Source of the DNA: a virus
Lineage: Duplodnaviria > Heunggongvirae > Uroviricota > Caudoviricetes
DNA: 64,000 nucleotides
Reading direction: 5' to 3' (one strand)
Virus record (IMG/VR): IMGVR_UViG_2861079508_000001
Positions 10,301 to 51,966 of the stretch are shown here, piece after piece (positions within the stretch are counted from its first letter, which is position 1; each line of letters opens with the position of its first letter). The translations under genes and the position numbers were made by a program. The notes under the pieces are model-generated. The model was given only the letters and a program-made list of their open reading frames with translations, was not told the DNA's origin and searched no databases.

Positions 10301-11119
10301 GTCTGTATGGCGGTCGCCATCGTGGCAAAGGTGCTAACCATCTGGCTGCCTGCGCCAACTACCCCCATGATCCCTGCTCGCATCAGTTTGAACGCAACCA
10401 TCGCGGCCACGACCTTACCGAGATTAATTACCAGCTCTTGGTTCTTTGCTAACCATTGAGCAAGCTGACGCAACCCATCAATTGCCGTCGTTAACCCCGA
10501 GCCTAAAGAATTGGCAAACGAAATCCCTTCGGCGCTATTCATGATTGAAGCCAGTTCTTTCATCCCCTTCGATAGAGAATCCAGATATCCGGCCTGACCA
10601 ACCCGATCAGCAAATAACGTGAATGACGTCTGAAGTTGCGCCAGCGCACCTGTGTAGGTTTGCATCATGTCTTTCGCTGCGTTCTCATTCTCCGCACGCA
10701 GACCAACAAACATCAGAGACAACGCCTGTTTTGCCTCAACCGTACCGCTGGCAACGGCTTTAGTCAGTTCCCCCATAGTGATGCCTGCGGCGTCTGCCAT
10801 TGCCTGCATCGCGTTAGGAACGGCTTCACCTAATTGCTGACGTAGCTCTTCCATTGACACAACGCCCTTACCGGACATCTGCTGAACGGCCACAGCCGCA
10901 CGTTTCAACAGCTCACTATCACCACCAAAACGAGCAACGGAGTCCACCAGCGCCTTCAGAGAACCATCGGTTGGATCTAAGCCAGCAGAACGAAACTTCA
11001 CGAAGGAATCTGTTAACGCCTGCATCGCGAACGGCGCATTTTGCGCCATGTCTACGATGTACTTCATATCATCAGCGGCAGCCTGGCCAGGGTTGGACTT
11101 CTCCTTATTCAACCCTCGA
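7381..11119 (-). pseudogene. tape measure protein, C-terminal ~1245 codons, 5' part severed by IS insertion
   Basis: Long Ala/Gln/Lys-rich helical ORF ending with Gly-rich C-terminal region; ORF start abuts the IS left end; continues in the N-terminal fragment at 12430-13286. Confidence 0.8.
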
Positions 11120-32375: not shown

Positions 32376-32858
32376 TTACACGCCATCAAGGATGTGGATG
32401 CGGTTGCTTGCGTATACATTCAGCATAAAGTTAGCGCAAAACAGTTTCCATGTATCAACGCCAGCGGTATACGTAATGTTTTTGCATTTAATTGCATTGT
32501 TGGCGATCCGCATCCCCTGCGATACTGCTTCATCGTCGGAAAATTTGAACGACGATTGAGTTTTAATCCAGACAGAAATCTGCGTAGCGAACTCAATCAG
32601 CTTGGACTGGCAGAATCGCCCGGAGCGCACCGGAAGGACGAACGTTCCGAATCCAGAATTTACCACATATGCTTTCTCAAATACCCGCGAGTAACGACGA
32701 TTGCCAATGATGTCGCGTGCAATAATGCATTTTTCTTGTGCTGACAGTTCTACCGTCTCATTGTCGCGCCATGCACCAAGTACTCGTTTTTCAATGTCAG
32801 AGAACGTTACAGCGATATTGCCATGTGCGGGTGCGTTTACAGTAGCGATAAAATTCAT
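32376..32858 (-). CDS. hypothetical protein
   Basis: 160 aa ORF preceded by promoter and motif. Confidence 0.5.
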   Translation of the reverse strand: MNFIATVNAPAHGNIAVTFSDIEKRVLGAWRDNETVELSAQEKCIIARDIIGNRRYSRVFEKAYVVNSGFGTFVLPVRSGRFCQSKLIEFATQISVWIKTQSSFKFSDDEAVSQGMRIANNAIKCKNITYTAGVDTWKLFCANFMLNVYASNRIHILDGV

Positions 32859-32876
32859 GATTAATTCCTTATCGTA

Positions 32877-32933
32877 AATAACAAATTGTTTTCTTGTTGG
32901 TGTTAATTATCGTTGTACGAATAAGGCGTCAAA
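32877..32933 (-). promoter_or_regulatory. sigma70-like promoter (TTGACG - 16 bp - GATAAT) with downstream AACAA-N-TTGTT motif
   Basis: Hexamers on minus strand; palindrome between -10 and RBS. Confidence 0.5.
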
Positions 32934-33208
32934 GTGGAAAGTTGCGGTAGCCGGACGGGAACAGGTGGGTTTGTCGGTTGCCTGGAGGTAAGAGGTTGGT
33001 GTTATTAGCCTGAGGGAAACAGGATGGTCATTTAAGACCACCAATGCTGGTGGCCTTAATAATTATCGCCCGATTACGCTAAGGATCTTTTCCTCAACTG
33101 ATTTGTTGTTGCGACTAAACTGCCTTGCGTATCTGATGACAGAAGAGGCGTTTTGCTTTCTGACCATCTCGGCTCTTTCCTTCAGGCGTTTCTTGAAATC
33201 GCCCATAT

Positions 33209-33625
33209 TTACCACCAGGCGCAGAAGGTCAGTCTGTTATTGTGAAAGTCGTGGTTCTTAATCAGATCTTCCACAAGCTCTTTCAACTGCCCCACATCAT
33301 GCCAGTAACCTTCGTCGTACTCCTGACTGCCGAAGAAAAAACCTTCCCGAGTAGGCAAGTACTCTTCGCAATTGCTTTCGTTTATGTGCATCAAATGAGC
33401 TTTCAGAAGACAAATGTCATTCATCGTTAATTCTAAAAGCTCACAATTTTCGACTTCACCTACGTTGCGCTCCATCCACCCAACGAGCGCATTGAACTTA
33501 CGGAAGTAAGCAACCTGCTTTCTGGATGCCTCGTTATTCAGATCGTTTTTAGGCTGTGTCTCGATATAGATATCAAGTCCCATGATGGTTTCCTTATTAA
33601 CTTGCTTCAGTAAAATCATTTTCAC
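33209..33625 (-). CDS. hypothetical protein
   Basis: 138 aa ORF; likely true start a few codons inside. Confidence 0.45.
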   Translation of the reverse strand: MKMILLKQVNKETIMGLDIYIETQPKNDLNNEASRKQVAYFRKFNALVGWMERNVGEVENCELLELTMNDICLLKAHLMHINESNCEEYLPTREGFFFGSQEYDEGYWHDVGQLKELVEDLIKNHDFHNNRLTFCAWW

Positions 33626-33666
33626 AAATCAGATAAGGCAGAAAACAAATTGTTATCTGGCTTAAT

Positions 33667-33692
33667 AAAATGGCGCGGTTTACGCGCCATTT
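33667..33692. terminator. intrinsic terminator hairpin (AATGGCGCG-GTTTA-CGCGCCATT)
   Basis: Hairpin flanked by A/T runs, immediately after a TAA at about 33701. Confidence 0.5.
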
Positions 33693-33856
33693 AAAGAGGA
33701 TTAAGCGAATACGCTTTCAGGGATTAAGGTGTCGGCAGGAATGCCAGAGGTAATGCGCAGGCCGTACTGACCAATCCAGGTAGTGTTGGTATTCAGGCTG
33801 GAGGCGAATACGGTGTTAACCATATTCATCATGGTTTCAAACACCTCTTCATCAAC

Positions 33857-34096
33857 CTAGCGGAAGTAGTTCTCGATTTTCAGCAGCAGCGGGTCAGTTG
33901 CATCGAGAATGGACTGGTATTGAGTCGCGTACTCGCCGCCGGAGGCATCACCTTTACGCACGATCGTACTGGCCTGGACTTCGGCACCAGTTTCGGTGTT
34001 GTACGTAACAACGGTAATTTTTGCCACATTCTTACCTTCGGCGGTTTCAGAGGCATAGTAAACATCAACTGTCAGTTTTTCGCGTTTAACGGTCAT
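33857..34096 (-). CDS. hypothetical protein, apparently truncated (79 aa) by a premature TAG
   Basis: ORF ends at TAG; protein-like reading frame continues about 49 codons to a TAA at about 33701 followed by a terminator. Confidence 0.45.
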   Translation of the reverse strand: MTVKREKLTVDVYYASETAEGKNVAKITVVTYNTETGAEVQASTIVRKGDASGGEYATQYQSILDATDPLLLKIENYFR

Positions 34097-34221
34097 TTCA
34101 CTCTCCGTAGTGTATTGGTTATTTTTATATTCTATAATCGTAAGTATTTACTTACAATACAAAAAGCCCCGTAAGGATGGCGGGGCTGTCGTACTGTCGA
34201 CTAATTGCCACTTGCACATTA

Positions 34222-34533
34222 TCAGGCTATTGCCATCACTGATGCTCTCTGAATTTCTTGCTGGGCCACGCGGTTAACTTCCATCAAGGCCAGTTCGAGC
34301 TGATGTTCCGGCCACATTCTTTGAAACGCCATCCAGCCTTTTCCACGCTGGCGACGAACATTCATTACATAACGAGTAAAGGTGTTTTTATCGAAAGACA
34401 CCGCTGTTTCACGGAACAGACGAATAGAGGTTCCATTGGCAACGATGTCCAGCAAAGTTAATTGAGCAACCAGCGCAGGCTTCTCTTTTCTCTTCTGGTC
34501 TTTGTCCAGACCAAGAACCAATGATTTTTTCAT
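34222..34533 (-). CDS. hypothetical protein
   Basis: Start at MKKSLVLG with RBS GGAG; motif AAACAACTTGTTTTCT immediately upstream. Confidence 0.5.
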   Translation of the reverse strand: MKKSLVLGLDKDQKRKEKPALVAQLTLLDIVANGTSIRLFRETAVSFDKNTFTRYVMNVRRQRGKGWMAFQRMWPEHQLELALMEVNRVAQQEIQRASVMAIA

Positions 34534-34544
34534 CACAACTCCGT

Positions 34545-34560
34545 AAACAACTTGTTTTCT
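34545..34560. promoter_or_regulatory. palindromic motif AAACAACTTGTTTTCT
   Basis: between -10-like TATTAT and RBS of downstream gene. Confidence 0.45.
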
Positions 34561-34687
34561 CAATGGCGTAAATAATACCAATAAGAAAACGGCTACAAAG
34601 CATAATGATCAGGTGCATGAGCGATATGCAGGTTCTTCCCTGCGGCTACAGATTAAGTTAAGCCAGCAATGCTGGCTTTGGTTGGGA

Positions 34688-35017
34688 TTACGCGAATACC
34701 TCAAGAAACTCCTGAACGTCCCAATGCTGGACGAGGTGAAGATAGACCTTAGAAATCACGTCATTTTCGCTATCGCATGTGAAGTAGTACTTCTGGCTGC
34801 GGTTGTATGTGTCCACACAAAATTCGCTCATATCCATAAAGTCAGCATCATCACCCAGGTCGCTAATCATCAAAGCAGGTGCATCATCACGAGTCATCAG
34901 CTCCAGCACCCATCTTGAATTAATCAGAGTGGAAGACCAACCTTCCAGCTCATAAAACTGGTCAAACTCTTTTTGAGTCAATTTCTTAATTTGGTTGATG
35001 TCGATATTTGCAAACAT
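34688..35017 (-). CDS. hypothetical acidic protein
   Basis: Start at MFANIDINQ with RBS AAGGA. Confidence 0.5.
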   Translation of the reverse strand: MFANIDINQIKKLTQKEFDQFYELEGWSSTLINSRWVLELMTRDDAPALMISDLGDDADFMDMSEFCVDTYNRSQKYYFTCDSENDVISKVYLHLVQHWDVQEFLEVFA

Positions 35018-35029
35018 AAAGCAATCCTT

Positions 35030-35045
35030 AAACAAGATGTTTTCT
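35030..35045. promoter_or_regulatory. palindromic motif AAACAAGATGTTTTCT
   Basis: between -10-like GATAAT and RBS. Confidence 0.45.
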
Positions 35046-35379
35046 TAATGGTGTTATTATCGCAATAACGCACAGGCGAAAAAGGATTTTATTCCGGTGA
35101 ATGTGGTTTTGGCAGTGAGTTTTCAGGTTCAGTACAGAGTACACTTTTTACATTATTCTGATTTAGTGGCCGAAGATGGCTGGTGGGCAGAATAATCATC
35201 TCCCCGAAAACCTACTGAAATCGATTGTGACCCGTTGGCTGTCTGGCACAATTACGCTGTAACTGGGCATTCAGAGGGAATCCAGCGGTAAGTAGGTTCG
35301 CCTTCACGTGAGCGCCTCTCTTCTTCCCGCACATTACAGGTGGGTAGCCGCAACTCTCCCTCTCGCTATGCCGGTACGC

Positions 35380-35520
35380 CGCCGTTCCTGAACCGGCATC
35401 GAGCCTTTTCCCGAAATCCACACAGGCAACTCGACCGTTTCCCTGAAAACCTCCAGCCGTTCCCCGAAGGCAACCCAGCCGTTTCTGTAGCGGGATGCAA
35501 CCTTTTCCCTGTATGGACCG
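35380..35520. repeat. array of about 6 degenerate (G)CCGTTTCCC(T)GAA-like repeats
   Basis: Units at about 22-bp spacing read from sequence; Chi octamer at about 35179-35186 nearby. Confidence 0.5.
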
Positions 35521-35619
35521 AAGGCTGACCGTAGGGGTGTTACGGGGGATAAAATCAGGAGTTGAATAAATACGAAAAAGGAGGCGACACCCCTCCTTCC
35601 CTCCCCACTTATACATACC

Positions 35620-36580
35620 TGGCTTCTTCGCTATACATGTTGTGTTTTATCTGTCTCAACCTCTCTATAGGCGTTAATGCTCACTCCTTCCAGAATGTTC
35701 TATACGGCAACTATTTCTGTTGGTGAATTGGGTGTGTTGTTCTCTCTGTCGGTGTATGTGGTTTCGTTCGTTTTGCGGTGGTTCTTCTATGGGGTGTTCT
35801 CGTCGTTTTGGTGATTGTTCTTCTCCGTGTATGGAGTAATGGCAGGTGGGCGATTCCTTTCGTTGTTGTGTTTGAGTTGTTTGTCTGGAGTGTGTGAAAG
35901 GCTTTTGCAGTTATTCGTGTATTGGGTAATGGCATTTCCCGTGATTGTTGTGTTTCGTGTCTTTTGGGATTGAGAGAAACCTTGCGGTTACAGGCTTCGT
36001 TGGGGTTTCAGTGATTCTGGTGTTCTTCGCTGTTTGGGGAATGGCGTGTCGTGGGTATCGCGCGTATGAATGTTTTCGGATTGCCTGTGAAAGTTAGGTT
36101 GGTTGTCCGGTAGCCTGGGGAGAAGAGGTGGGTCTTTTCGGTAGCCTGCCATAAAGAGGTTGGTTGTTTTTGGAAATGGCATTTGTGTTATTTAGTTGTT
36201 TTGTTATGCCTGAAAATAAGTTGTTTATATGGTTGTGTAACGCAACGGGAGCGATTTTGAGCGTGTGTTTTTGTTGGTAGTGTGTTGGGTCGTCTGTGGT
36301 GAAAATTGGACGCTGTGGCGCTGTCTGCTGCGTAGAGTTACGGGTATAAGCAGTGATGTGTGAAAACGTCAATTTTTTAGACCAAATCGGGTGAAAGCGT
36401 TGATGTTTCGTTGATCTGTTATTCAGTTGTTTTCTTGATTGTATAAACAACTATAACTTATTGATATTTAAGGATGTGATTGCGGGTATGGAAGAAGAGT
36501 AGTGGCGATCAACGGATTCTTATAGAAAAGAATCAAATTGTGACCGCCATTATCAACTGATTGATTTGTTTACTTGTGTA
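35620..36580. repeat. ORF-free GT-rich, C-depleted region with degenerate repeats
   Basis: No ORF of 60 aa or more on plus strand; strong G+T skew; repeated GGNAATGGC and GGTAGCCTG...AGAGGTNGGT units. Confidence 0.6.
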
Positions 36581-36581
36581 G

Positions 36582-36980
36582 TCAGTTCTCGAAATGAATA
36601 GGGTCAACGTAATGCCGCTCACCGCTTTTACCATTACACAGCACTGTAACTTTCGCCTTTTCACTCCAGGCTGAGTATAGAAAGTTCCCATCAGGTTGAA
36701 CATGGTAACGAGAGAAGTAAACATCGCCGACTGAGGCGTCGAACATGTTCCTATCTTTTTCACTTTGGGCAAGCGAGATGGATATCACCGAATTCCCATT
36801 TGGGGAAACGATTTTAAATTTATTCCCTATATCCATAACAATATTGTAACCAGGTAATTGCTTGTGTGTTTCCGGATCTATTTTCATGCATCGTGGGTAC
36901 ACGATAGTGTTAGGCTCTTCAACTGGCGTGGCATTAGCAGAAAGCACAAAAAATATTAGTGCCAATGGTGCATATTTCAT
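36582..36980 (-). CDS. secreted/periplasmic hypothetical protein
   Basis: N-terminal signal peptide MKYAPLALIFFVLSANA. Confidence 0.5.
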   Translation of the reverse strand: MKYAPLALIFFVLSANATPVEEPNTIVYPRCMKIDPETHKQLPGYNIVMDIGNKFKIVSPNGNSVISISLAQSEKDRNMFDASVGDVYFSRYHVQPDGNFLYSAWSEKAKVTVLCNGKSGERHYVDPIHFEN

Positions 36981-37274
36981 TTATCCCTCACAATTTCCAA
37001 TTTTCCAGACCATCGTCTATTTCAGCGTCAGGGTGGAATTGTACCGCATCAAATCCTACATCGAGCACCTTTCGAATGTTCTTGATGGTTTGCTATGTGA
37101 CACCGTAATCACGCAGCTTTTCTTCCCTCCCCTGACTCCCCCATACTCCGTTTCTGTACCCAATTGAGTCCGAGATTGTATGGTGCTCGAAACAGATATT
37201 TGGTAGACACTCAGAGTCATGCTGTGTAACGAGGGTAGGGCTACTAACTGTCGTCTTATACAATTTGGTGAGTT

Positions 37275-37523
37275 TCAGCATTTTACCACCCCGTTCGGAA
37301 ACAACTCATTCGCCGTAGTTGATATAACCTCCCAATTAACGCCGACATCAGCGTTATGGCATTGTCTGATTTTTTGCATCACCTGTACGCATTGTTCATC
37401 AGTGAGATCTGTCCTTACTTCAGCAATATCTTCTTTGTGCCACATAACCATGAGTAAGGGTTCGTCTTCTGGATAGTTTTTCAGTTTCTCGATGATTTCT
37501 TTTGCTGTTCCAAACATCTTCAT
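37275..37523 (-). CDS. hypothetical protein
   Basis: 82 aa ORF with motif upstream. Confidence 0.45.
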   Translation of the reverse strand: MKMFGTAKEIIEKLKNYPEDEPLLMVMWHKEDIAEVRTDLTDEQCVQVMQKIRQCHNADVGVNWEVISTTANELFPNGVVKC

Positions 37524-37528
37524 CTCCT

Positions 37529-37593
37529 AAACAATTTGTTTTCTTATATGACTTATTATCTCAATCAACAAAAGGTAGAAAACAAATTGTTTT
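37529..37593. promoter_or_regulatory. two inverted copies of AACAA-N-TTGTT motif; the second is split by the host-segment junction
   Basis: AAACAATTTGTTTTCT and AGAAAACAAATTGTTTT; the latter is completed by TTGTTTTCTAG at about 41159. Confidence 0.5.
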
Positions 37594-37633
37594 AGAGTTT
37601 GTTAAAGTCAGAAGGGGTTGTGTCTATATGAAA

Positions 37634-37656
37634 ATGCCCGGCGTGTTGCCGGGCAT
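37634..37656 (-). terminator. intrinsic terminator downstream of metG
   Basis: Hairpin ATGCCCGGC-GTGTT-GCCGGGCAT followed by T-run on minus strand. Confidence 0.6.
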
Positions 37657-37676
37657 TGCGAAGAGAGGTTGTTTAA

Positions 37677-39710
37677 TTACTTAACCTGGTGGCCAGGTTT
37701 AGCACCAGCATCCGGGCTTAACAGGAAGATATCTTTCCCGCCGGGGCCAGCAGCCATCACCATGCCTTCAGAGATACCGAAGCGCATTTTACGTGGTGCC
37801 AGGTTAGCCACCATAATGGTGTGACGACCAATCAGTGCCTGTGGATCTGGATAAGCGGAACGGATGCCTGAGAAGACATTACGCTTTTCACCACCGAGAT
37901 CCAGCGTCAGGCGAAGCAGTTTGTCAGAACCTTCTACAAACTCTGCGTTTTCAATCAGCGCCACGCGCAGGTCAACTTTGGCGAAGTCGTCAAAGGTGAT
38001 AGTTTCCTGAATCGGGTCGTCAGCCAGTGGGCCAGTTACCGGTGCGGCTGTGGCTTTCACTTCTTCTTTGGATGCTTCCACCAGTGCTTCAACCTGCTTC
38101 ATATCGATGCGGTTATACAGTGCCTTGAACGGATTCACTTTATGGCCCAGCAGCGGTTGCTGGATACCATCCCAGGTCAGTTCTGTATTCAGGAATGCTT
38201 CTGCACGTTCAGTCAGTTTCGGCAGTACCGGTTTCAGGTACGTCATCAGCACGCGGAACAGGTTAATGCCCATAGAGCAAATCGCCTGCAGATCGGCATC
38301 GCGTCCTTCCTGCTTTGCCACCACCCACGGAGCCTGTTCATCAACATAGCGGTTAGCCAGGTCAGCCAGTGCCATGATTTCACGGATAGCTTTGCCAAAT
38401 TCGCGGCTTTCCCATGCTTCGCCAATCACTTCAGCGGCATCAGTAAAGGTTTTGTACAGTTGCGGGTCAGCCAGTTCGCTTGCCAGCACGCCGTCAAAAC
38501 GCTTGTTGATAAAGCCTGCATTACGGGAGGCCAGGTTAACCACTTTGTTAACGATATCGGCATTCACACGCTGAACGAAATCTTCCAGGTTGAGATCGAT
38601 ATCATCAATGCGCGAAGAGAGTTTCGCAGTGTAGTAGTAACGCAGGCTGTCGGCGTCAAAATGATTCAGCCAGGTGCTGGCTTTAATAAAGGTGCCGCGA
38701 GACTTGGACATCTTCGCGCCGTTCACCGTCACATAGCCGTGAACAAACAGGTTGGTCGGCTTGCGGAAGTTGCTGCCTTCCAGCATGGCAGGCCAGAACA
38801 GGCTGTGGAAGTAAACGATATCTTTGCCGATGAAGTGGTACAGCTCGGCGGTGGAGTCTTTCTTCCAGTATTCGTCGAAGCTGGTAGTGTCGCCGCGTTT
38901 GTCGCACAGATTCTTGAAGGAACCCATGTAGCCAATCGGCGCGTCCAGCCAGACGTAGAAGTATTTGCCCGGTGCGTTCGGAATTTCAAAACCGAAGTAA
39001 GGTGCGTCACGGGAGATATCCCACTGTTGCAGGCCAGATTCAAACCACTCCTGCATTTTGTTTGCCACCTGCTCCTGCAACGCACCGCTGCGGGTCCATG
39101 CCTGCAACATTTCGCTGAAAGAAGGCAGATCAAAGAAGAAGTGTTCGGAATCACGCATTACCGGTGTAGCGCCAGAAACCACTGATTTCGGCTCGATCAG
39201 TTCCGTCGGGCTGTATGTCGCGCCGCAGACTTCACAGTTATCGCCGTATTGATCCGGCGCTTTACATTTCGGGCATGTGCCTTTTACAAAACGGTCCGGC
39301 AGGAACATGCCTTTTTCCGGGTCGTACAGCTGAGAGATGGTGCGGTTTTTAATAAAACCGTTCTCTTTCAGGCGAGTATAGATAAGCTCGGACAACTGAC
39401 GGTTCTCTTCGCTGTGCGTCGAGTGATAGTTGTCATAGCTGATGTTAAAGCCTGCGAAATCAGTCTGATGTTCCTGACTCATTTCGCCAATCATCTGTTC
39501 CGGTGTGATACCAAGCTGCTGTGCTTTCAGCATGATTGGCGTACCGTGGGCATCGTCGGCACAGATGAAATTAACCTCGTGGCCGCGCATTCGCTGGTAA
39601 CGAACCCAGACATCAGCCTGGATGTGCTCCAGCATATGGCCGAGGTGGATTGAGCCGTTAGCGTACGGCAGCGCGCACGTCACCAGAATTTTCTTCGCGA
39701 CTTGGGTCAT
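37677..39710 (-). CDS. metG: methionine--tRNA ligase (enterobacterial host-type)
   Basis: 677 aa from [25 protein letters not shown] (HIGH motif), KMSKS motif, C-terminal tRNA-binding domain; near-identical to Escherichia MetG by recall. Confidence 0.95.
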
Positions 39711-39867
39711 AGTAGGCATTACTTCTTTGTAGTGAAAAGGGGCTTGATAGTAACAAAATGGCCTTATGTCTGCCATGTGATAACAGCATTTCTCATAAAT
39801 GATTAAATGTCGTAGCTGGAGTACACTACAAGGCGACAATTGCGCAAATTAAAATAAAGGAGACGGG

Positions 39868-40968
39868 ATGAGCGAGTCCAAATCGCCGGATGCCCTGAGA
39901 GCAATGGTAGCCGGTACGCTGGCTAATTTTCAGCACCCAACCCTGAAACACAACCTGACTACGCTTAAAGCGTTACACCATGTTGCGTTGATGGATGACA
40001 CACTGCATGTCGAACTAATCATGCCTTTCGTGTGGAATAAGCCTTTTGAAGACCTGAAAGAGCAATGTAGTGGTGATCTGCTCCGTATCACTGGCGCAAA
40101 GGCTATTGACTGGAAGCTGTCGTACAACATTGCCACGCTTAAGCGCGTCAAAAACCAACCAGGCATTAATGGCGTTAAGAACATTATCGCCGTCAGCTCA
40201 GGCAAGGGCGGCGTGGGTAAATCCTCCACGGCGGTAAACCTGGCACTGGCGTTGGCTGCTGAAGGTGCGAAAGTTGGTATTTTGGATGCCGATATCTATG
40301 GTCCATCAATTCCAACCATGCTGGGCGCGGAAAACCAACGTCCAACCTCACCGGACGGTACTCACATGGCACCTATCATGTCTCATGGCCTGGCAACCAA
40401 CTCTATTGGTTATCTGGTCACCGACGACAATGCAATGGTGTGGCGTGGACCGATGGCCAGCAAGGCGCTGATGCAGATGTTGCAGGAAACACTGTGGCCT
40501 GATCTGGACTATCTCGTTCTCGATATGCCACCGGGCACTGGTGATATTCAATTGACGCTGGCGCAGAACATTCCTGTAACTGGTGCGGTTGTGGTAACTA
40601 CGCCGCAAGACATCGCGCTGATCGATGCGAAGAAAGGCATTGTGATGTTCGAAAAAGTCGAAGTGCCGGTACTGGGTATCGTTGAAAACATGAGTGTGCA
40701 TATTTGCAGTAACTGCGGTCATCACGAGCCAATTTTTGGCACCGGTGGCGCACAGAAACTGGCCGAGAAATACAACACGCAGTTGTTAGGCCAAATGCCA
40801 CTTCATATCTCTCTTCGTGAAGATCTGGATAACGGAACACCAACCGTTATTAGTCGTCCAGATAGTGAATTTACGGCTATTTATCGTGACCTCGCAGATC
40901 GCGTTGCTGCCCAAATGTATTGGCAAGGTGAAGTAATACCTGGCGAAATCGCATTCCGCGCAGTGTGA
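39868..40968 (+). CDS. apbC: Fe-S cluster carrier ATPase ApbC/Mrp
   Basis: Walker [11 protein letters not shown] and CxxC motif CSNCGH; divergent from metG as in enterobacterial chromosomes. Confidence 0.95.
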
Positions 40969-41266
40969 TAAAAAGGTGGTGCTTTTGCCGTTACGCACCA
41001 CCCCGTCAGTAGCTGAACAGGAGGGACAGCTGATAGAAACAGAAGCCACTGGAGCACCTCAAAAACACCATCATACACTAAATCAGTAAGTTGGCAGCAT
41101 CACCGAGCGCCAGCGGCGAACATATGAGCTTCGGAAATACTAGACATTCTTAACTCCGTTGTTTTCTAGTTGTGGTTATTTTCACAAATAAGAAAAGATA
41201 GAAAACAATTTATTTAAGGCCACAACTTATGGCCTTTATTTATTCATGCCGAAGGATTTGTAGCGT

Positions 41267-41647
41267 CTAATTGCCGGATAAAATGGGGTGAGGTGCTTGC
41301 CAGTAGGCTCCACCGTTCCATGTGAACCCCATGCGAATAAGAGTGTTTATTGCGGCTTTGGTAGACTCCGATTCGACACTGGCTTTACGAAACTCTTGAA
41401 CCTCTTTCGCCAACTTGTATGTAATTGTGCAGGGGACGATTGCAGCCCAGCCTTTCTCATGACTGTTAATGACCATCTGGATGTGACCATCCAGAATAGG
41501 TTGATTAGGCATGTTATTGAAAATGTCTGCCTGTTTTTGAATGTGAAGAAAAAGCCTTGCCAGCGCCATTTGCTCACTACGAGACAAGGGATTATCAAGA
41601 GGGCTTTTTGCAAAAGCTGCTATACGCTGTGCATCAATGCCAAACAT
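41267..41647 (-). CDS. hypothetical protein
   Basis: 126 aa ORF. Confidence 0.45.
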   Translation of the reverse strand: MFGIDAQRIAAFAKSPLDNPLSRSEQMALARLFLHIQKQADIFNNMPNQPILDGHIQMVINSHEKGWAAIVPCTITYKLAKEVQEFRKASVESESTKAAINTLIRMGFTWNGGAYWQAPHPILSGN

Positions 41648-42351
41648 CAGCGCACCTCACCATCTTTATGGCTGGAGTTAACTTCCGTCATTAAATGTCT
41701 GACGTAATCGACAAGAGAGCCGCCTGGTGGAATCTGGCATTCCTCAACTAACTGGAAGTAGATATCCGCTGCATTACGTGTATTGCTACCCGCGCATATT
41801 CTTTCTTCCCGAAGTGCATGAAGCTCGTTGATCAAACGGTCACACTCTCCGTTACGCTGATCCACAACGGCCTCAAGCTCTGCGACGCGTTCACCTGGCG
41901 TCTTACCTTCTTTGCGTTGGATGGTAACGACGAAATCGCCAATTGCAGGGACGTTGTAATCCAGCTCAAGGTAGTTTTTGGCACCGCTGCGGACGAACTC
42001 ACCCGCGAACATGGTGGCGAACATCGCAGAGGCCACTTCTCCGTTGAAAAGTGACTCCAGATCTAACGGAGTCCCGGCAGCAAGAGCCTCTTTTGCTGTA
42101 TCCATTGCATCCATGAACCGATCAAACTCACTAGCGCGCTTTTCCAGGTCTTTCCATTGCTCGCTCCAACGTTTGGCAACGAAGTCTATGAATGTTTTCG
42201 CGGATTCATCAAAATTCCCCTCAAACTTAACGATGCCTTTATCAATAATGATCTGGCCTACCGCATCCTCTGCATAACCTTTCAATGTAAACTTGAAAGG
42301 AAAATCGGAATGGCCTGTGACGTTAAAATGCTCTAACTGGAGGTTGCTCAT
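41647..42351 (-). CDS. hypothetical protein
   Basis: 234 aa ORF. Confidence 0.45.
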   Translation of the reverse strand: MSNLQLEHFNVTGHSDFPFKFTLKGYAEDAVGQIIIDKGIVKFEGNFDESAKTFIDFVAKRWSEQWKDLEKRASEFDRFMDAMDTAKEALAAGTPLDLESLFNGEVASAMFATMFAGEFVRSGAKNYLELDYNVPAIGDFVVTIQRKEGKTPGERVAELEAVVDQRNGECDRLINELHALREERICAGSNTRNAADIYFQLVEECQIPPGGSLVDYVRHLMTEVNSSHKDGEVR

Positions 42352-42412
42352 GTGTTTTTCTCTTATCGTTTAGTAACTACATTCTTACATAAATTAAGTA
42401 AGCATTTACCTA

Positions 42413-44098
42413 TCATTTAACGCGTTTGAAAACGTATACGCTGACTGTGATCCCTGTGTCTTCAAACTCGTTGGTAAACGACTTCCCTCTGGCATAAACG
42501 TAATTATCCATCGTCATCCAGTCCAGTATTGGCGCAGTGCCCGGCAATACTGCTACAAGACGCCCGCCGACTTTCAGATGCCCCAGCGCAGCCAGCGTGT
42601 GCTCTCTATGACGACCAAGCGAGTACGGCGGGTTCATAACGATTTTGTCGAACTGATAACCTGCGTTGTCCTCAGACCACTTTATGAAGTCGCAGCAAAT
42701 CGTGTTCGTATACCCTTTTCCACGCAGGATATCAGCGAAGAGAGGTGCGATTTCTATGCAGGTAACATCTTCCAGATCGGCGTCAATATAGGCCAGAAGA
42801 TCCCCACGTCCGGCTTGAGGCTCCAACAGCTTCTCACCAGGCTTCAATTCAGTGGCTCTTGCAACGTACTCAGCAATCAAGCGTGGGGTAGGGTAGAACT
42901 GGTGTGATTTTGTATCCGGTATTAAACCGGTAGCCACAATCGTATTTAGCGTATGGCCGATGTCATACGGGAACTGCCAGTGCTTTTTCTCCTGCACGCC
43001 GCCAATGAAGCTCAGTGTGCGCTCAAGCTCTTCCACCTGCGACTTCTGGAGAGCTGAATCAGAGAAGTACCATACACCTTTGTCTTTGCTCAATCGCCCG
43101 TCACGAAGCGCAGTGCGAACCGGCACGGAGATCGTCTTCTGGATTAAACCGAACTGCTTTGGTGCCCGTGTTTTTGGCGCAGTTCGGCATGGCGCGGGGA
43201 TTGCAGCAGGCATACTGTAAGCCAGCACCTCATTCAACTTCCAGGCCACGTCAGGATGTATTTCAAAGTGAACGTTGCCGTTCTTGAACATCTTCACGCG
43301 CATCAGATTTCCATCGACGTTCATCCAGTCACCGGTCTGGCAGTCGTTTGCCCGATACGCAGCTGATAGCACCTCAGCAGTGCGGTTGATGGTAATAAAT
43401 TCTTTGTGCGCGAAGAAATGAAGCAAGACACGCAGATCGTCGATGTAGTCCTCTTTGCGATAGTTCACGCTAACGCTGTCCCGCCAGAAATCAGAAATGC
43501 AGTCAGCGATTATCAGCCGCTCGCTGAAACCATTTGTCTTATTTGTCTTGTGCACAGGACTCAGCGCCTTAAACAAGCCATACACGCGCTCAGAGAGATA
43601 TTTGTGCCTGTCATTCAGCAAATTAAGCATCGTGGGTATGACCGTTTCTGCTTTGAACTCCGGTACACCAACGAACTCTTTAACCTTCATCTGGTAGCCG
43701 GTTCTGTCAGTTTTGATGACTTCCTGTTTGCCCTCTATAAACTGCTCGCGCCACTCATCTCGACGGGAAGCTGGCATGATCAGCAAAACGTTAGTCATGT
43801 CCGTGACCTTCCTCCAGTACTCGGCCCAAATATTCTGTTTCACCCATTCCAGATCGACTTTATCCAACCAACCTCGATTTAAACGCGAGCGATCTTCATC
43901 TGGTCGATGGTTTAGTTTCAGCAGGCGATTAATCATGTTGTGGCGTTCGTCGCCATAAACGAAGTTGTGAACCTGATACATGAAGGCGATCTCTTTCTCG
44001 CACTCGGCCACAATTTCGTGGATAACGTTCATTTCCTGACGATAATCGATAGCAGTGTTTGAGCTGGCATCGTCGATGATGGAAAGGGCTGTATTCAT
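42413..44098 (-). CDS. N6-adenine DNA methyltransferase with large N-terminal domain of unknown function
   Basis: C-terminal motifs FYPTP, EPQAGRGD (AdoMet binding) and NPPY (catalytic). Confidence 0.65.
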   Translation of the reverse strand: MNTALSIIDDASSNTAIDYRQEMNVIHEIVAECEKEIAFMYQVHNFVYGDERHNMINRLLKLNHRPDEDRSRLNRGWLDKVDLEWVKQNIWAEYWRKVTDMTNVLLIMPASRRDEWREQFIEGKQEVIKTDRTGYQMKVKEFVGVPEFKAETVIPTMLNLLNDRHKYLSERVYGLFKALSPVHKTNKTNGFSERLIIADCISDFWRDSVSVNYRKEDYIDDLRVLLHFFAHKEFITINRTAEVLSAAYRANDCQTGDWMNVDGNLMRVKMFKNGNVHFEIHPDVAWKLNEVLAYSMPAAIPAPCRTAPKTRAPKQFGLIQKTISVPVRTALRDGRLSKDKGVWYFSDSALQKSQVEELERTLSFIGGVQEKKHWQFPYDIGHTLNTIVATGLIPDTKSHQFYPTPRLIAEYVARATELKPGEKLLEPQAGRGDLLAYIDADLEDVTCIEIAPLFADILRGKGYTNTICCDFIKWSEDNAGYQFDKIVMNPPYSLGRHREHTLAALGHLKVGGRLVAVLPGTAPILDWMTMDNYVYARGKSFTNEFEDTGITVSVYVFKRVK

Positions 44099-44110
44099 AA
44101 TTACACCATT

Positions 44111-44126
44111 AAATAATTTGTTTTCT
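44111..44126. promoter_or_regulatory. palindromic motif AAATAATTTGTTTTCT
   Basis: immediately upstream of methyltransferase gene. Confidence 0.45.
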
Positions 44127-44239
44127 GATTGGTGTAATTATCGCAAACTTGAAAAGGCATAAAAGCTGCATTCATAGGCGTTACAGCAGATTTAAGGCGT
44201 AAAAATGGGGGCTGTCGCCCCCTGTCGACTGGTGCTGTA

Positions 44240-44806
44240 TTAGAGTGCGTATTGCGTTTTGTGCGGCTGCTTATTCAAGTCATGGCGATGCGTGAGCTCC
44301 CGCATCATGTCTTCAAGGCGACTCTTTGTGTCGTCGAGCTGGTCGGCCATTGCACCTAAAAGCTGGCGAACGGCCATCGGATCGTCGCTGTTTAGTGATG
44401 GCATTTTAGAACCTGCTTTAGAAGACATAAGGTTGATTGCAGACATCAACATCGTTAGAGAGGATTTAAGCCCGGCAATTTCACGATCTTTGCTGGCAAT
44501 AATCGTCTCACTTTTGTTACCGTCATCAGTTTCTTGAGTCTCGCTCACCATATCCAAAGTCGCTTGCAACTTATCAGCTCTCTCTTTTTCAGCAAGGTAA
44601 TGAACACCGAAATGGTGTGCCAAAGCTACAATCTGAGTTGGCTCTTCAAAGGTGGAATTAAAATTAAGTATTGTAAACAGTCTCTCAAATATGGAAACGT
44701 CTTCTATTCCTCGAAGAATGGCTAACATTTTGACCAGTTCATTAGCATCCATTTCTTCGAATAAGGCGTTTTGTTCATCAGCTATCGCTTTGCATTTCTT
44801 GCACAT
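44240..44806 (-). CDS. hypothetical protein
   Basis: 188 aa ORF with motif upstream. Confidence 0.45.
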   Translation of the reverse strand: MCKKCKAIADEQNALFEEMDANELVKMLAILRGIEDVSIFERLFTILNFNSTFEEPTQIVALAHHFGVHYLAEKERADKLQATLDMVSETQETDDGNKSETIIASKDREIAGLKSSLTMLMSAINLMSSKAGSKMPSLNSDDPMAVRQLLGAMADQLDDTKSRLEDMMRELTHRHDLNKQPHKTQYAL

Positions 44807-44824
44807 GTGTTTTTCCTAATGCTT

Positions 44825-44840
44825 AAACAAGTTGTTTTCT
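44825..44840. promoter_or_regulatory. palindromic motif AAACAAGTTGTTTTCT
   Basis: upstream of 44240-44806. Confidence 0.45.
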
Positions 44841-45103
44841 TATTGTCTTTATTGTGATGTGGCATAAAAGGGGAGCAAGCTAAACGTAAAGGTGCAAACT
44901 CTCTATTTCGGTCAACGAAACACAAGGGCCATTTGGCCCTTGTCATTAACACTTTGCTTTACGAACTAACGGATAAGCGAAGTAGATCGCCAAACCAATG
45001 AGGACGCCATCAGAAATGACAGACATCATCTTTCCCGTAAAATCCACCAACACCGCCATCACCAGAAGAGCAATGACGATCACAAGCCGGAATCTCTCAA
45101 GCA

Positions 45104-45529
45104 TTAGAGATAAGCATCCAGTGACAACTGAAGCGCCTGGGCGATCTTTTTCAGTGCCTGCTCTTCTTGTTCACCAATGCCGTCCTGATCGGCAATATCA
45201 AGGCACAGACACAGAACATCGACCGCCTCTGGAGTACCCGCAATATCAGACAGCTCACGAATAGCCTGTGCATTAGCAGAACGAGGGGACGCTTCGTAAC
45301 GAGCACGGATATTGGCGCTCATTTGGGCAATTTCACCAGCAAACGGAGAAAACGCAGGCAGAGCTGCAATTGTCTTCTCAAGAATGGCAATTTCTTTTGC
45401 GTCACATGTGCCGTCGGCATAGGAGATCATGTACGCGCCCCACACGGTGGCCTCAACCGCATCACGGTTCTCCATTTTTTTGACTTCGATAACAGCTTTA
45501 CGAGTTTTCTTTTTGAAGAAACCTAACAT
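45104..45529 (-). CDS. TerB-like domain protein (putative)
   Basis: 141 aa, weak resemblance to TerB/DUF533 helical fold. Confidence 0.35.
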   Translation of the reverse strand: MLGFFKKKTRKAVIEVKKMENRDAVEATVWGAYMISYADGTCDAKEIAILEKTIAALPAFSPFAGEIAQMSANIRARYEASPRSANAQAIRELSDIAGTPEAVDVLCLCLDIADQDGIGEQEEQALKKIAQALQLSLDAYL

Positions 45530-45552
45530 GTGCTTTCCTTTTATTATTTGTC

Positions 45553-45569
45553 AAAACAAGTTGTTTTCT
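45553..45569. promoter_or_regulatory. palindromic motif AAAACAAGTTGTTTTCT
   Basis: upstream of 45104-45529. Confidence 0.45.
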
Positions 45570-45622
45570 AATTACATAAATTGCTTACGCAGAGATGGTC
45601 AATGCATATGCACTAACAGCCG

Positions 45623-50845: not shown

Positions 50846-51490
50846 CTAATGAACGGTCACTCGGCCACAGAACCGGTTTTCTATCTTTTCTACAGCGTTA
50901 TCTAGCATTCTCATCACTGATCGGGCTCTTGCTTCAACCGTGCGATATCGGTTGGAAACGACGAAGGTTTGCAGATCTCCCCTTTGCGGATGCAGGTGAA
51001 TTTTTGTCAGTTCCCCGCACATCAACGCATCAATACGAGCGACATACAGACGGTCTAATGATGCTCGTTGTGATCGCAAGTAATCTCGCTCTGAGAGAGC
51101 GACTCCCGGGCGTAAGCCAGCAATGGCGTTAAAGTTTGAAATAGCAGTTTTGTGGCAAAACTTTTCGATATCGAGGGCTAACTCAATACACCGATCTTCA
51201 TTTGTATGGCCGACCAAATCCAACGTGTAGGCCATAACATCAGCAGGTGTGCGATCGATAACAAAGCCTTCAACACCACGCGTAAGTAGCTCTATATGCT
51301 TTGCTATTTCCATTTGAATCTGAAGCCGCTCATATAGAGGCATAGAATCACCTACTCGAACACCGAGGCGGCTCATCAAACTTCCGACACCAGCATCCAC
51401 GTAAGGGATTCCGTAATGTTTGTCGATATATTTAGCCAGGGTTGTTTTCCCACTGCCCTGAGCACCAGTGATCCCAATCCGGTAATCCAT
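50846..51490 (-). CDS. P-loop nucleotide kinase (dNMP kinase-like)
   Basis: Walker A GAQGSGKTT; context among nucleotide-metabolism genes. Confidence 0.5.
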   Translation of the reverse strand: MDYRIGITGAQGSGKTTLAKYIDKHYGIPYVDAGVGSLMSRLGVRVGDSMPLYERLQIQMEIAKHIELLTRGVEGFVIDRTPADVMAYTLDLVGHTNEDRCIELALDIEKFCHKTAISNFNAIAGLRPGVALSERDYLRSQRASLDRLYVARIDALMCGELTKIHLHPQRGDLQTFVVSNRYRTVEARARSVMRMLDNAVEKIENRFCGRVTVH

Positions 51491-51966
51491 TACGACCTTC
51501 TGTATACGATCTGCGAAAAGCCAGGCTCTTCCTCGCTGGCTCGTTGGGTATAAGCTGTTTCAACAGGCACAAAGCCTAAGTTACGCATCATGCTTGCCGG
51601 GAAGAATGCATCGGCGTTTGGTACATCAATGCCGATGTGGGAGAGCCAAATCTCTTCAACATGCGGCATGAATAGCGAGTAAATTTGTTCCCCGCCAATC
51701 ACCCACACAGGCTCTGGTAATCGCAACACATCATCCACACCAGCAGGGTAGAATCCATTTGGTACAAAGCCATGAGAGCGCGTCAAAACGAGGTTATGAC
51801 GCTCTGGAAGAGGGCGTTTGAGACTTTCCATCGTTTTACGCCCCATAACGACAGTGGCGTTTTTGGTGAGTCTCTTAAATAGCTTCAGATCGGTAGAACA
51901 ACGCCAGGGGAGTTCATTCGCTATGCCGATCTCATAGTTACGGCCAACAGCAGCGATCATCTTCAT
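51490..51966 (-). CDS. frd: dihydrofolate reductase
   Basis: DHFR family pattern (ELPWR, VVMGRKT, VWVIGG). Confidence 0.8.
   Translation of the reverse strand: MKMIAAVGRNYEIGIANELPWRCSTDLKLFKRLTKNATVVMGRKTMESLKRPLPERHNLVLTRSHGFVPNGFYPAGVDDVLRLPEPVWVIGGEQIYSLFMPHVEEIWLSHIGIDVPNADAFFPASMMRNLGFVPVETAYTQRASEEEPGFSQIVYRRS

Follow-up and report, generated by a model that had tools for sequence, protein, structure and literature searches.

A long-resident metG-apbC accessory module in an SSU5-supergroup phage-plasmid of the Escherichia/Shigella branch

The metG-apbC cargo of E. coli and Shigella phage-plasmids has already been described, and hundreds of records are annotated with it. Closest to the locus analyzed here are the SSU5-group phage-plasmids of the pWPMR2 and pSLy3 types from S. 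sonnei and E. coli, which share the same backbone family and carry metG. pWPMR2-like phage-plasmids have been found in both species (bioRxiv 10.1101/2025.09.12.675607), and the phage-plasmid metG of S. sonnei pWPMR2 has been linked to antimicrobial tolerance (Tam et al., medRxiv 2024, doi 10.1101/2024.10.27.24316207), the summary in PMC12452169 noting that the extra metG reportedly creates an antimicrobial-tolerant subpopulation. For the related phage Cyrano, virion production is documented, as is a copy number of ~5.5 per cell (PMC9928086). Published persistence involves reduced metG function, through variant alleles or knock-down (PMC11004401), whereas the phage-plasmid gene is an extra, wild-type-like copy. 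Our literature search returned no paper linking SSU5 itself to metG or methionyl-tRNA synthetase.

The window, a 64,000-nucleotide stretch of the IMG/VR virus record IMGVR_UViG_2861079508_000001, is an SSU5-supergroup phage-plasmid of the metG-bearing Escherichia/Shigella branch. Its metG-apbC region is, very probably, an accessory module of this supergroup that was captured long ago and may behave as a self-contained moron, with a right side derived through IS1 and a deletion. To the earlier descriptions we add that the module is old and close to fixation in its lineage, with strong purifying selection acting on each of its genes, that it sits in a cargo slot whose content is swappable and which a repeated operator/promoter cassette delimits, and that the seeming insertion scar in the window is an artefact of this cassette and the IS1-linked deletion.

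By nucleotide search, the metG-apbC region is 100% identical to E. coli plasmids of 113-114 kb, and both flanks match, in the same order, Salmonella phage SSU5 (70-83% identity; collinear backbone) and the phages Cyrano, CMS-2020a, and PhiR41_1 (91-98% identity). The backbone block at 41267-44098 is present in 241 of 5,426 complete E. coli genomes, at 250 places that are all on plasmids, with none chromosomal; the locus is not a phage-host boundary, as the sequence-only reading had argued, and its flanking 'phage' sequence is not ordinary chromosomal DNA. Among these genomes, ~218 of the ~241 plasmids with the backbone carry the phage-plasmid metG allele (~218 records), which places it in roughly 4% of complete E. 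coli genomes. The metG-apbC module was further found on 201 plasmids in PLSDB, whose hosts are E. coli, E. albertii, E. marmotae, and S. sonnei, and in four phage records, representing Cyrano, CMS-2020a, and PhiR41_1; of the 207 matching PLSDB records, 202 were typed non-mobilizable. The module is nearly fixed within the phage-plasmid lineage, while unrelated cargo takes its place in ~10% of relatives, and it is therefore not essential for the phage cycle. A metG gene on a phage, previously thought unusual, is so in general, but not in a group where phage-plasmid metG is already described.

The intact, divergent gene pair seen in the sequence-only reading is confirmed, as follows:

37677-39710, minus strand: metG, full-length class I methionyl-tRNA synthetase (MetRS), 677 aa
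39711-39867: divergent metG-apbC intergenic region, 157 bp
39868-40968, plus strand: apbC/mrp, Fe-S cluster carrier P-loop ATPase, 366 aa

The catalytic, anticodon-binding, and C-terminal tRNA-binding (tRNA_bind) domains of the MetRS are all complete (PF09334 matched over positions 1-390 of 391, E 5e-166, together with PF19303 and PF01588), and the translation keeps HLGH, KMSKS, and the Zn-knuckle cysteines CPKC...CEVC. Compared with the K-12 enzyme, the protein carries eight conservative substitutions (98.8% identity), none of them at the persistence-allele sites 263/264 or 569-572. ApbC, whose N-terminus is 3 aa shorter than that of chromosomal ApbC, matched PF10609 over positions 2-245 of 246 in a profile search (E 2e-102), with the Walker A (GKGGVGKS) and CSNC motifs intact. 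The dN/dS of metG was 0.009-0.022 against Escherichia species (up to 0.029 when Citrobacter and Salmonella were included) and 0.006 among phage-plasmid alleles, and values of 0.006-0.022 suggest that the MetRS retains aminoacylation activity. For apbC, dN/dS was 0.01-0.024, and the phage-plasmid alleles did not differ from one another by a single amino acid at a dS of 0.09.

The pair is not fresh host DNA; it is an old module with strong purifying selection on both genes. The genes had been taken for the host's own, which their nucleotide identity to E. coli K-12 (94.2% for metG, 82.6% for apbC) contradicts. Against every Escherichia species, metG is 93-94.3% identical, equal to the identity between those species, and apbC 82-83%; against all 5,424 chromosomal E. 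coli copies, metG is 90-95% identical and never ≥99%, and among plasmids it is 95.5-100% identical. In neighbor-joining (NJ) trees of both genes, Escherichia and the phage-plasmid alleles together are monophyletic with 100% support, and the plasmid alleles, with an internal dS of ~0.1, are themselves monophyletic in 100/100 bootstraps for metG and apbC alike.

The gene order and orientation equal those of the E. coli chromosome and the GC content of the segment (0.51-0.53) is above that of its flanks (~0.39-0.46), features that would also suit a recent, specialised-transduction-like pick-up from the current host or a phage/chromosome assembly chimera, the latter raised when the sequence was first read. 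We give such an origin almost no credence, given the absence of any chromosomal metG at ≥99% identity, an apbC at only 82%, plasmid alleles that form their own clade with the internal divergence noted above, and the recurrence of the module in 201 independent plasmid assemblies as well as four phage records; ~200 independent complete plasmids with the same pair are not what a chimera would leave. Sequence divergence and recurrence together rule out a recent host capture or chimera. Under the preferred reading, a chromosomal metG-apbC pair of the Escherichia lineage would have been captured long ago, since trimmed to the two coding sequences and the divergent promoter region, and both genes would afterwards have been kept functional through strong purifying selection. 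A search for the donor among 80 enterobacterial species genomes gave no close match (best metG 94.3%, apbC 83.9%), and no recognisable signature of the capture event is left.

The depths of the two genes are discordant, with a dS against Escherichia species of 0.28-0.37 for metG and 1.3-1.9 for apbC, so that a single capture requires unequal rates or a later metG replacement. A two-step history, which refines the preferred explanation rather than competing with it, would place an old apbC-metG capture from a stem-Escherichia or unknown neighboring lineage before a replacement of the metG half by homologous recombination with an Escherichia chromosome, with a breakpoint in the intergenic region near 39757-39761. 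The divergence of apbC is ~2.7x the Escherichia crown depth by dN as well as by dS, dN/dS being unchanged, compared with ~1x for metG, and phage-plasmid metG is nested within the Escherichia crown whereas phage-plasmid apbC is its long-branch sister (each in 100/100 bootstraps). Likewise, the intergenic region matches Escherichia chromosomes only over the 47-51 nt upstream of metG (to ~39757-39761), the remainder showing a weak Citrobacter likeness (77%), and the GC3 of metG is host-like (0.61) while that of apbC has drifted to 0.52 (0.61 in K-12). Set against this are the lack of clear recent conversion tracts between plasmid and chromosomal metG (the longest run identical to K-12, 134 bp, is not decisive, being only modestly above an estimated chance expectation of roughly 80 bp at 94% identity), gene-specific rates, such as stronger codon-usage constraint on metG, that could explain part of the discordance, and the proneness of NJ to long-branch effects on saturated apbC third positions. 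On balance, we judge the two-step history to have slightly less than an even chance of being correct. That apbC was an ancient phage-plasmid resident predating the Escherichia crown radiation, and metG was replaced later from an Escherichia chromosome, is a more tentative proposal still. If true, it would mean that an essential gene of the chromosome exchanged alleles with its phage-plasmid paralogue, and that ApbC itself is under selection (e.g., for maturing phage-encoded Fe-S enzymes) apart from the published metG tolerance.

On the metG side, the module is bordered by the following features:

37275-37523, minus strand: DUF1380 gene
37526-37544, minus strand: palindromic motif AGAAAACAAATTGTTTAGG of operator type, immediately ahead of the RBS and ATG with which the DUF1380 gene starts; one copy of the repeated promoter/operator cassette lies here
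37577-37595: complete copy of the palindromic motif, AGAAAACAAATTGTTTTAG, 17/19 to the ideal palindrome
37596-37676, minus strand: non-host spacer downstream of metG
37633-37657: terminator-like hairpin downstream of metG, followed by UUUUCAU (-19.1 kcal/mol, z -5.3 by folding)

Homology to SSU5 and to the metG-less plasmid of strain BHD6 (the BHD6 plasmid) ends at the motif copy at 37577-37595, and the left boundary just after it (~37595) is the only true module border. Host homology, in turn, ends at the metG stop codon; the spacer at 37596-37676 is conserved in every metG-bearing phage-plasmid examined and has no counterpart downstream of metG in 80 enterobacterial chromosomes. The metG terminator noticed earlier therefore stands as a hairpin, which a simple terminator scan missed and folding confirmed, but not as host DNA.

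The apbC side is more complex:

40969-40985: left arm, AAAAAGGTGGTGC, of the terminator once distal to apbC, which is still an intact hairpin, GGTGGTGCATTGCACCACC, in p009_B
40979-41105, minus strand: IS1 left-end remnant (IRL and start of insA), 127 bp, 99-100% identical to IS1
41106-41147, minus strand: first 14 codons of an HD-domain phosphohydrolase gene, MSSISEAHMFAAGA, truncated by the IS1 insertion
41148-41167, minus strand: RBS and operator half-site AGAAAACAA of the HD gene cassette (minus strand; equal to the right-hand TTGTTTTCT)
41199-41236: upstream motif copy of the HD gene cassette, TAGAAAACAATTTATTTAAGG, overlapping a hairpin at 41216-41236
41267-41647, minus strand: Eaa-like gene, followed by the hairpin at 41216-41236

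The segment from 37594 to 41158 is thus not all host-type DNA, as had been supposed, given that 40979-41105 is an IS1 remnant and 41106-41158 native phage-plasmid sequence. Both p009_B and SSU5 (SSU5_099) have an intact HD gene, contiguous with the stretch at 41106-41167, and this stretch is native phage DNA rather than an insertion junction. The remainder of the IS1 is deleted, with no second end, and the deletion joint shows GTGC microhomology at 40982-40985. IS1 probably inserted after codon 14 of the HD-domain gene, then ~5.5 kb away, in the sub-lineage of the window, and a later deletion between the GTGC in IS1 and the GTGC in the apbC terminator would have removed most of the IS1 and everything between, bringing apbC beside the upstream cassette of the HD gene. 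The resulting right junction is common to only seven plasmids (among the 5,426 complete E. coli genomes, with ~218 metG-bearing plasmids), and the right side of the window most likely represents a derived arrangement.

In the common architecture, the module adjoins the 3′ end of an S24-peptidase gene, as in p38 (S. sonnei), Cyrano, p009_B, and p88COLEC, where apbC is followed by this gene and TTGTTTT is absent. Compared with the pWPMR2 and pSLy3 types, the window plasmid belongs to a seven-genome sub-lineage with the IS1-associated deletion right of apbC and DUF1380 on the left; the S. sonnei plasmid encodes the same MetRS (WP_001755492.1) and ApbC (WP_000004356.1), with 98-99% nucleotide identity over the segment. 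pLF82/phage Cyrano, CMS-2020a, and PhiR41_1 carry metG-apbC at the same position (95.6-98.2% identical), but Cyrano retains ~3.9 kb (Eae-like, Ea22-like, S24 peptidase, and other genes) between the Eaa-like gene and apbC and has a different 300-bp gene where the window has DUF1380.

When first read, the sequence was taken to show a discrete, transposition-like insertion in which 3.6 kb of host DNA entered a palindromic phage motif of 19 bp and duplicated TTGTTTT. Several of the underlying observations are sound: TTGTTTT does lie at both 37587-37593 and 41159-41165, the family of palindromic motifs is genuine (12 matches compared with 0.05 expected), and joining the two segment ends spells AGAAAACAAATTGTTTTCT, a palindrome of this family with 9-bp arms and a central A. 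However, the left motif is already complete (17/19) without any reconstitution, and the right TTGTTTT lies in native phage DNA, preceded by 53 bp of it and separated from apbC by the IS1 remnant. TTGTTTTCT likewise precedes the complete HD gene both in SSU5, a phage that lacks metG, and in p009_B, where it stands 5.5 kb away from apbC. The right junction is seen in only 7 of ~218 metG-bearing plasmids, the ancestral right border lacks TTGTTTT, and the segment shows no terminal inverted repeats and no transposase ORF, its sole IS sequence being one truncated IS1 end. The 7-bp direct repeat is the invariant half-site of a repeated cassette: nine copies, when aligned, show no variation in the AGAAAACAA half, and the operator cassette of which TTGTTTT(CT) is the invariant half occurs in at least nine copies. 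Relatives with a continuous palindrome free of the insert were also looked for; among the metG-less relatives an empty, uninterrupted palindrome was not seen, the slot holding five other genes in SSU5 and DUF4145 in the BHD6 plasmid. Such an insertion is, in our estimation, extremely improbable, and a target-site duplication is ruled out by the junctions of SSU5, p009_B, S. sonnei p38, Cyrano, and the BHD6 plasmid. The apparent scar is best read as a coincidence of the repeated regulatory cassette and the later IS1-linked deletion, and the AGAAAACAANTTGTTTTCT sites are putative targets of a phage-plasmid repressor.

Comparison with metG-less relatives places the module in a variable cargo slot, bounded to the left by a promoter/operator cassette of the phage and to the right by a gene for an S24 (UmuD/HumD-like) peptidase. 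In SSU5, the backbone is collinear and the same promoter/operator cassettes flank the slot, which contains an HD phosphohydrolase, a hypothetical gene, an LprI-family gene, ydfZ, and another hypothetical gene in place of metG-apbC. In the BHD6 plasmid, the DUF4145 gene fills the interval between the motif, past which homology is lost, and the stop codon of the S24 gene, where it returns. The module shares with phage morons a distinct composition, flanking hairpin terminators, a site between transcription units, and swapping in relatives, but differs from typical virulence or defence morons in that its cargo is a duplicated essential housekeeping gene pair and its promoters are putative. A simple scan of the intergenic region (39711-39867) gave no convincing sigma-70 consensus, so autonomous expression of the module can only be inferred. 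It may act as a self-contained moron, driven by divergent promoters of its own and closed off by a terminator on either flank, and expression from the multicopy prophage-plasmid would supply the lysogen with additional MetRS and ApbC, both wild-type-like.

Plasmid- or cluster-borne second aminoacyl-tRNA synthetases, such as the mupA IleRS, confer resistance to aminoacyl-tRNA synthetase inhibitors. Copies of the mupA type are likewise extra mobile copies of an essential synthetase; however, they are divergent and inhibitor-insensitive, whereas the phage-plasmid MetRS shares 98.8% identity with that of the host, and any effect is therefore more likely via dosage or expression. The phage-plasmid metG is of clinical relevance, as the summary in PMC12452169 reports that it promotes antimicrobial tolerance in epidemic Shigella sonnei. 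Alternatively, the module could serve the phage rather than the lysogen, with extra MetRS sustaining translation initiation and elongation in lytic growth, or bypassing host or competitor attack on Met-tRNA charging, and ApbC maturing phage Fe-S enzymes. The very strong purifying selection on both genes across the diversification of the phage-plasmid clade, extending to apbC, which has no reported part in tolerance, would fit such a benefit, as would the position of the module in an early-gene region that also contains nucleotide-metabolism genes, with metG transcribed in the same direction as the neighboring early genes. Yet the window contains no tRNA genes, unrelated cargo can replace the module, as noted above, and the sole phenotype found in the literature consulted is host tolerance (PMC12452169); we consider a benefit to the phage unlikely, though less so than the recent-capture and insertion scenarios.

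Within 30-46 kb of the window, no Rfam family was found, and a gene-free stretch of the window holds a trivial tandem repeat only. A further relative of the module's branch is pECOH89.

The metG and apbC genes recognized from sequence alone are indeed an intact divergent pair in phage DNA, with a GC content of 0.51–0.53 in the segment versus about 0.39–0.46 in the flanks.

37677–39710, minus strand: metG, 677 a.a., intact, full-length by Pfam
39868–40968, plus strand: apbC, 366 a.a., intact, full-length by Pfam, divergent from metG
37633–37657: hairpin terminator downstream of metG (−19.1 kcal/mol, z −5.3, by folding)

The 4 kb around metG-apbC is 100% identical to 113–114 kb E. coli plasmids (NZ_CP015915.1 and pSJC33-2, NZ_CP080257.1), with pSJC33-2 collinear with the window over 28 kb at 99.9%. 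The flanks keep the gene order of the Salmonella phage SSU5 (70–83% identity) and the Escherichia phages Cyrano, CMS-2020a, and PhiR41_1 (91–98%), and the annotated neighbors form an SSU5-type phage-plasmid (P-P) set, comprising ParB proteins, a helicase, RNase H, an adenine methylase, a thymidylate synthase, and DHFR, along with Ea22/Eaa-like and DUF4942 proteins. Among 5,426 complete E. coli genomes, 241 contained the backbone block at 41267–44098, in every case on a plasmid. Given this plasmid-borne block and the SSU5-like flanks, we have assigned the window as a phage-plasmid, and neither a chromosomal prophage nor a phage-host boundary. The sequence-only reading had likewise argued against such a boundary; its alternative of a phage-derived element resident in a chromosome is contradicted by the block, which lies on none of the chromosomes in those genomes.

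The DHFR of the P-P (window about 51490–51966; L001 26091–26567) sits in a thymidylate synthase/nucleotide-metabolism cluster and bears the RefSeq name "trimethoprim-resistant dihydrofolate reductase DfrA51". We also noted 2.3 kb without an annotated gene in the identical plasmid (34990–37274), with a similar ~1.5-kb gap in related P-Ps. Within it, the plus strand is strongly enriched in G and T over about 700 bp (35700–36350 area), with the GC skew reaching +0.48 and the AT skew −0.50. This stretch yielded no Rfam families or meaningful tandem repeats; it may represent a non-coding RNA or a region related to replication or packaging.

The segment had been taken for intact host chromosomal DNA, which its divergence contradicts. 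The nucleotide identity of metG to Escherichia species (93.0–94.3%) equals that of those species among themselves (92.4–95%), and apbC shows 82–83%, a between-genera distance. Against the same species, dS is 0.28–0.37 for metG and 1.3–1.9 for apbC, versus crown depths (E. coli vs. E. albertii chromosomes) of 0.34 and 0.64, respectively. Both plasmid genes cluster with Escherichia in NJ trees (100% bootstrap), metG inside the Escherichia crown and apbC as a long-branch sister of all chromosomal Escherichia (each 100/100 bootstraps). The GC3 of the plasmid alleles is 0.61 for metG and 0.52 for apbC (K-12 apbC, 0.61). Both genes are under strong purifying selection, with dN/dS of 0.009–0.022 (metG) and 0.014–0.024 (apbC) against Escherichia species; among themselves, plasmid alleles differ by a dS of about 0.10–0.11 and a dN of 0.0006 for metG, and by about 0.09 and 0 for apbC. 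The plasmid MetRS differs from K-12 MetRS at 8 positions, all conservative and none at known persistence-allele sites. Chromosomal homology of the module is confined to the coding sequences and 47–51 nt upstream of metG, and the hairpin downstream of metG, previously called the metG terminator, matched none of 80 enterobacterial metG loci. We regard metG-apbC as an old, functional, domesticated module rather than DNA newly taken from the present host.

The disagreement in depth between metG and apbC suggests one of two causes: metG may have been replaced later through recombination with an Escherichia chromosome, or the rates may be gene-specific. No decisive conversion tracts were found between plasmid and chromosomal metG. 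A 134-bp run of perfect identity to K-12 chromosomal metG (38518–38651), containing three sites at which two other plasmid alleles diverge, somewhat exceeds the about 80 bp roughly expected by chance at 94% identity and may be a small conversion patch, though not a decisive one.

The segment is carried (coverage of at least 80%) by 201 PLSDB plasmids from hosts including E. coli, E. albertii, E. marmotae, and S. sonnei (e.g., pLF82, an O104:H4 plasmid, and a 111,741-bp plasmid), and by four records of three named phages. Among complete E. coli genomes, about 90% of plasmids with the same backbone contain the module. The genes are annotated as metG and apbC in RefSeq, and as "Methionyl-tRNA synthetase MetRS" and "MinD" in Cyrano. 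P-P-borne metG is already known, having been described by Tam et al., as summarized in PMC12452169, according to which variable multicopy metG on a phage-plasmid creates a tolerant subpopulation in S. sonnei. The pWPMR2-like phage-plasmids have been reported from several E. coli clonal complexes and from 18% of UK S. sonnei (bioRxiv 10.1101/2025.09.12.675607), and Cyrano/pLF82 produces virions and is maintained at a copy number of about 5.5 per cell (PMC9928086). The module includes a divergent intergenic region of its own, is closed at each end by a hairpin terminator in its ancestral form, and resides on a multicopy extrachromosomal element; it would act as a moron that the lysogen expresses, raising MetRS and ApbC dosage. 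The literature ties this to antimicrobial tolerance. There may also be a phage-side benefit, e.g., translation capacity or Fe-S maturation in lytic growth, which might account for the equally strong constraint on apbC.

In the common architecture, seen in Cyrano, S. sonnei p38, p009_B, and p88COLEC, apbC is followed by 37 bp and then the 3′ end of an S24 (UmuD/HumD-like) peptidase gene. The BHD6 plasmid (NZ_CP141793.1), a related E. coli P-P without metG-apbC, holds a DUF4145 gene in exactly the same slot (10275–11018). Aligned to S. sonnei p38, which bears metG, it loses homology right after the left palindromic motif (~window 37593) and regains it at the S24 stop codon, with TTGTTTT absent from the right slot border in this comparison. 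SSU5 homology ends at the left motif (window 37595), and its slot contains five unrelated genes. Since both homologies break at this motif, the left boundary proposed earlier (37594) is a real module border; the right one (41158) is native P-P DNA behind an IS1 remnant. The locus is best described as a cargo-swap slot, and not as an otherwise empty palindrome that received one insertion.

Among relatives, this slot and the DNA around it form a cargo hotspot, including a second HD-domain gene beside metG in p009_B (L086 7100–7795), a type I restriction-modification system past the S24 gene in p88COLEC (L004 11027–15903), and ISEcp1-blaCTX-M-15 about 3 kb from apbC in S. sonnei p38 (L087 13111–15504).

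The palindromic motif family (AGAAAACAAATTGTTTTCT) is real, with 12 matches at up to 3 mismatches versus 0.05 expected, and TTGTTTT does occur at 37587–37593 and 41159–41165.

37577–37595: left motif copy AGAAAACAAATTGTTTTAG, a complete 17/19 palindrome
32856–45618: nine cassette sites, with minus-strand gene starts at 32858, 33625, 34506, 34989, 37523, 41147, 44098, 44806, and 45529

Alignment of the roughly 90 nt that precede each of nine early genes on the minus strand (32.8–45.6 kb) revealed a recurring cassette of TGnGATAAT (an extended −10-like element), about 11 nt, AGAAAACAANTTGTT, an RBS, and ATG, of which the AGAAAACAA half is invariant in 9/9 cassettes, the HD-gene remnant included. 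The 7-bp repeat is this invariant half-site in two neighboring cassettes and not a duplication. In some cassettes, a further palindrome lies upstream (e.g., 37577–37595 and 41199–41219). The joined ends do spell the 19-mer reported earlier, but the left copy is already complete, making its reconstitution superfluous. We infer that the motif is a putative operator for a dimeric P-P regulator, overlapping the transcription start. The nine cassettes look like a dispersed operator system, and the repeated cassette also marks mosaic module borders between related P-Ps.

To the right of apbC, the following remnants were identified:

40979–41105: IS1 left-end remnant, 127 bp, right after the apbC stop codon, 99–100% identical to IS1 in P1, SfIV, and others
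41106–41147, minus strand: HD-domain phosphohydrolase gene remnant, first 14 codons, with its RBS and upstream region also left

The former carries a partial IS1 transposase annotation in pSJC33-2. The next 53 bp (41106–41158) and all DNA rightward are native phage-plasmid (97.4% to p009_B, NZ_CP048306.1; 88% to SSU5), and from 41106 this stretch runs on into an intact HD-domain phosphohydrolase gene in both relatives. The right-hand TTGTTTTCT (41159–41167) is present in SSU5 without metG, and in p009_B with apbC 5.5 kb away; its position next to the HD gene in both indicates that it is simply sequence just upstream of that gene's RBS. Insertion with target duplication is ruled out by the IS1 remnant, the native 41106–41158, and the right repeat in metG-less SSU5. 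A discrete insertion into the palindrome is also contradicted by the right junction, which is common to only 7 plasmids (5,426 complete E. coli genomes) versus about 218 with plasmid-type metG, and by an ancestral right border without TTGTTTT. We thus consider the earlier observation partly right, in that the genes, motif, and repeats exist, and its insertion-with-duplication interpretation wrong.

Where the apbC side meets IS1, there is a GTGC microhomology (40982–40985) between the apbC-distal terminator (AAAAAGGTGGTGCATTGCACCACC in p009_B) and nt 124–127 or so of IS1. The simplest history would have two steps, an IS1 insertion into the HD gene and then a deletion taking most of IS1 and the genes in between, starting with the HD gene body and ending with the S24 peptidase gene, with a probable loss of about 3.9 kb relative to Cyrano or about 5.5 kb relative to p009_B. 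In p88COLEC-2, a complete IS1 lies immediately left of a DUF1380 gene (L004 5361–6128), indicating that IS1 has struck the module neighborhood independently in another plasmid.
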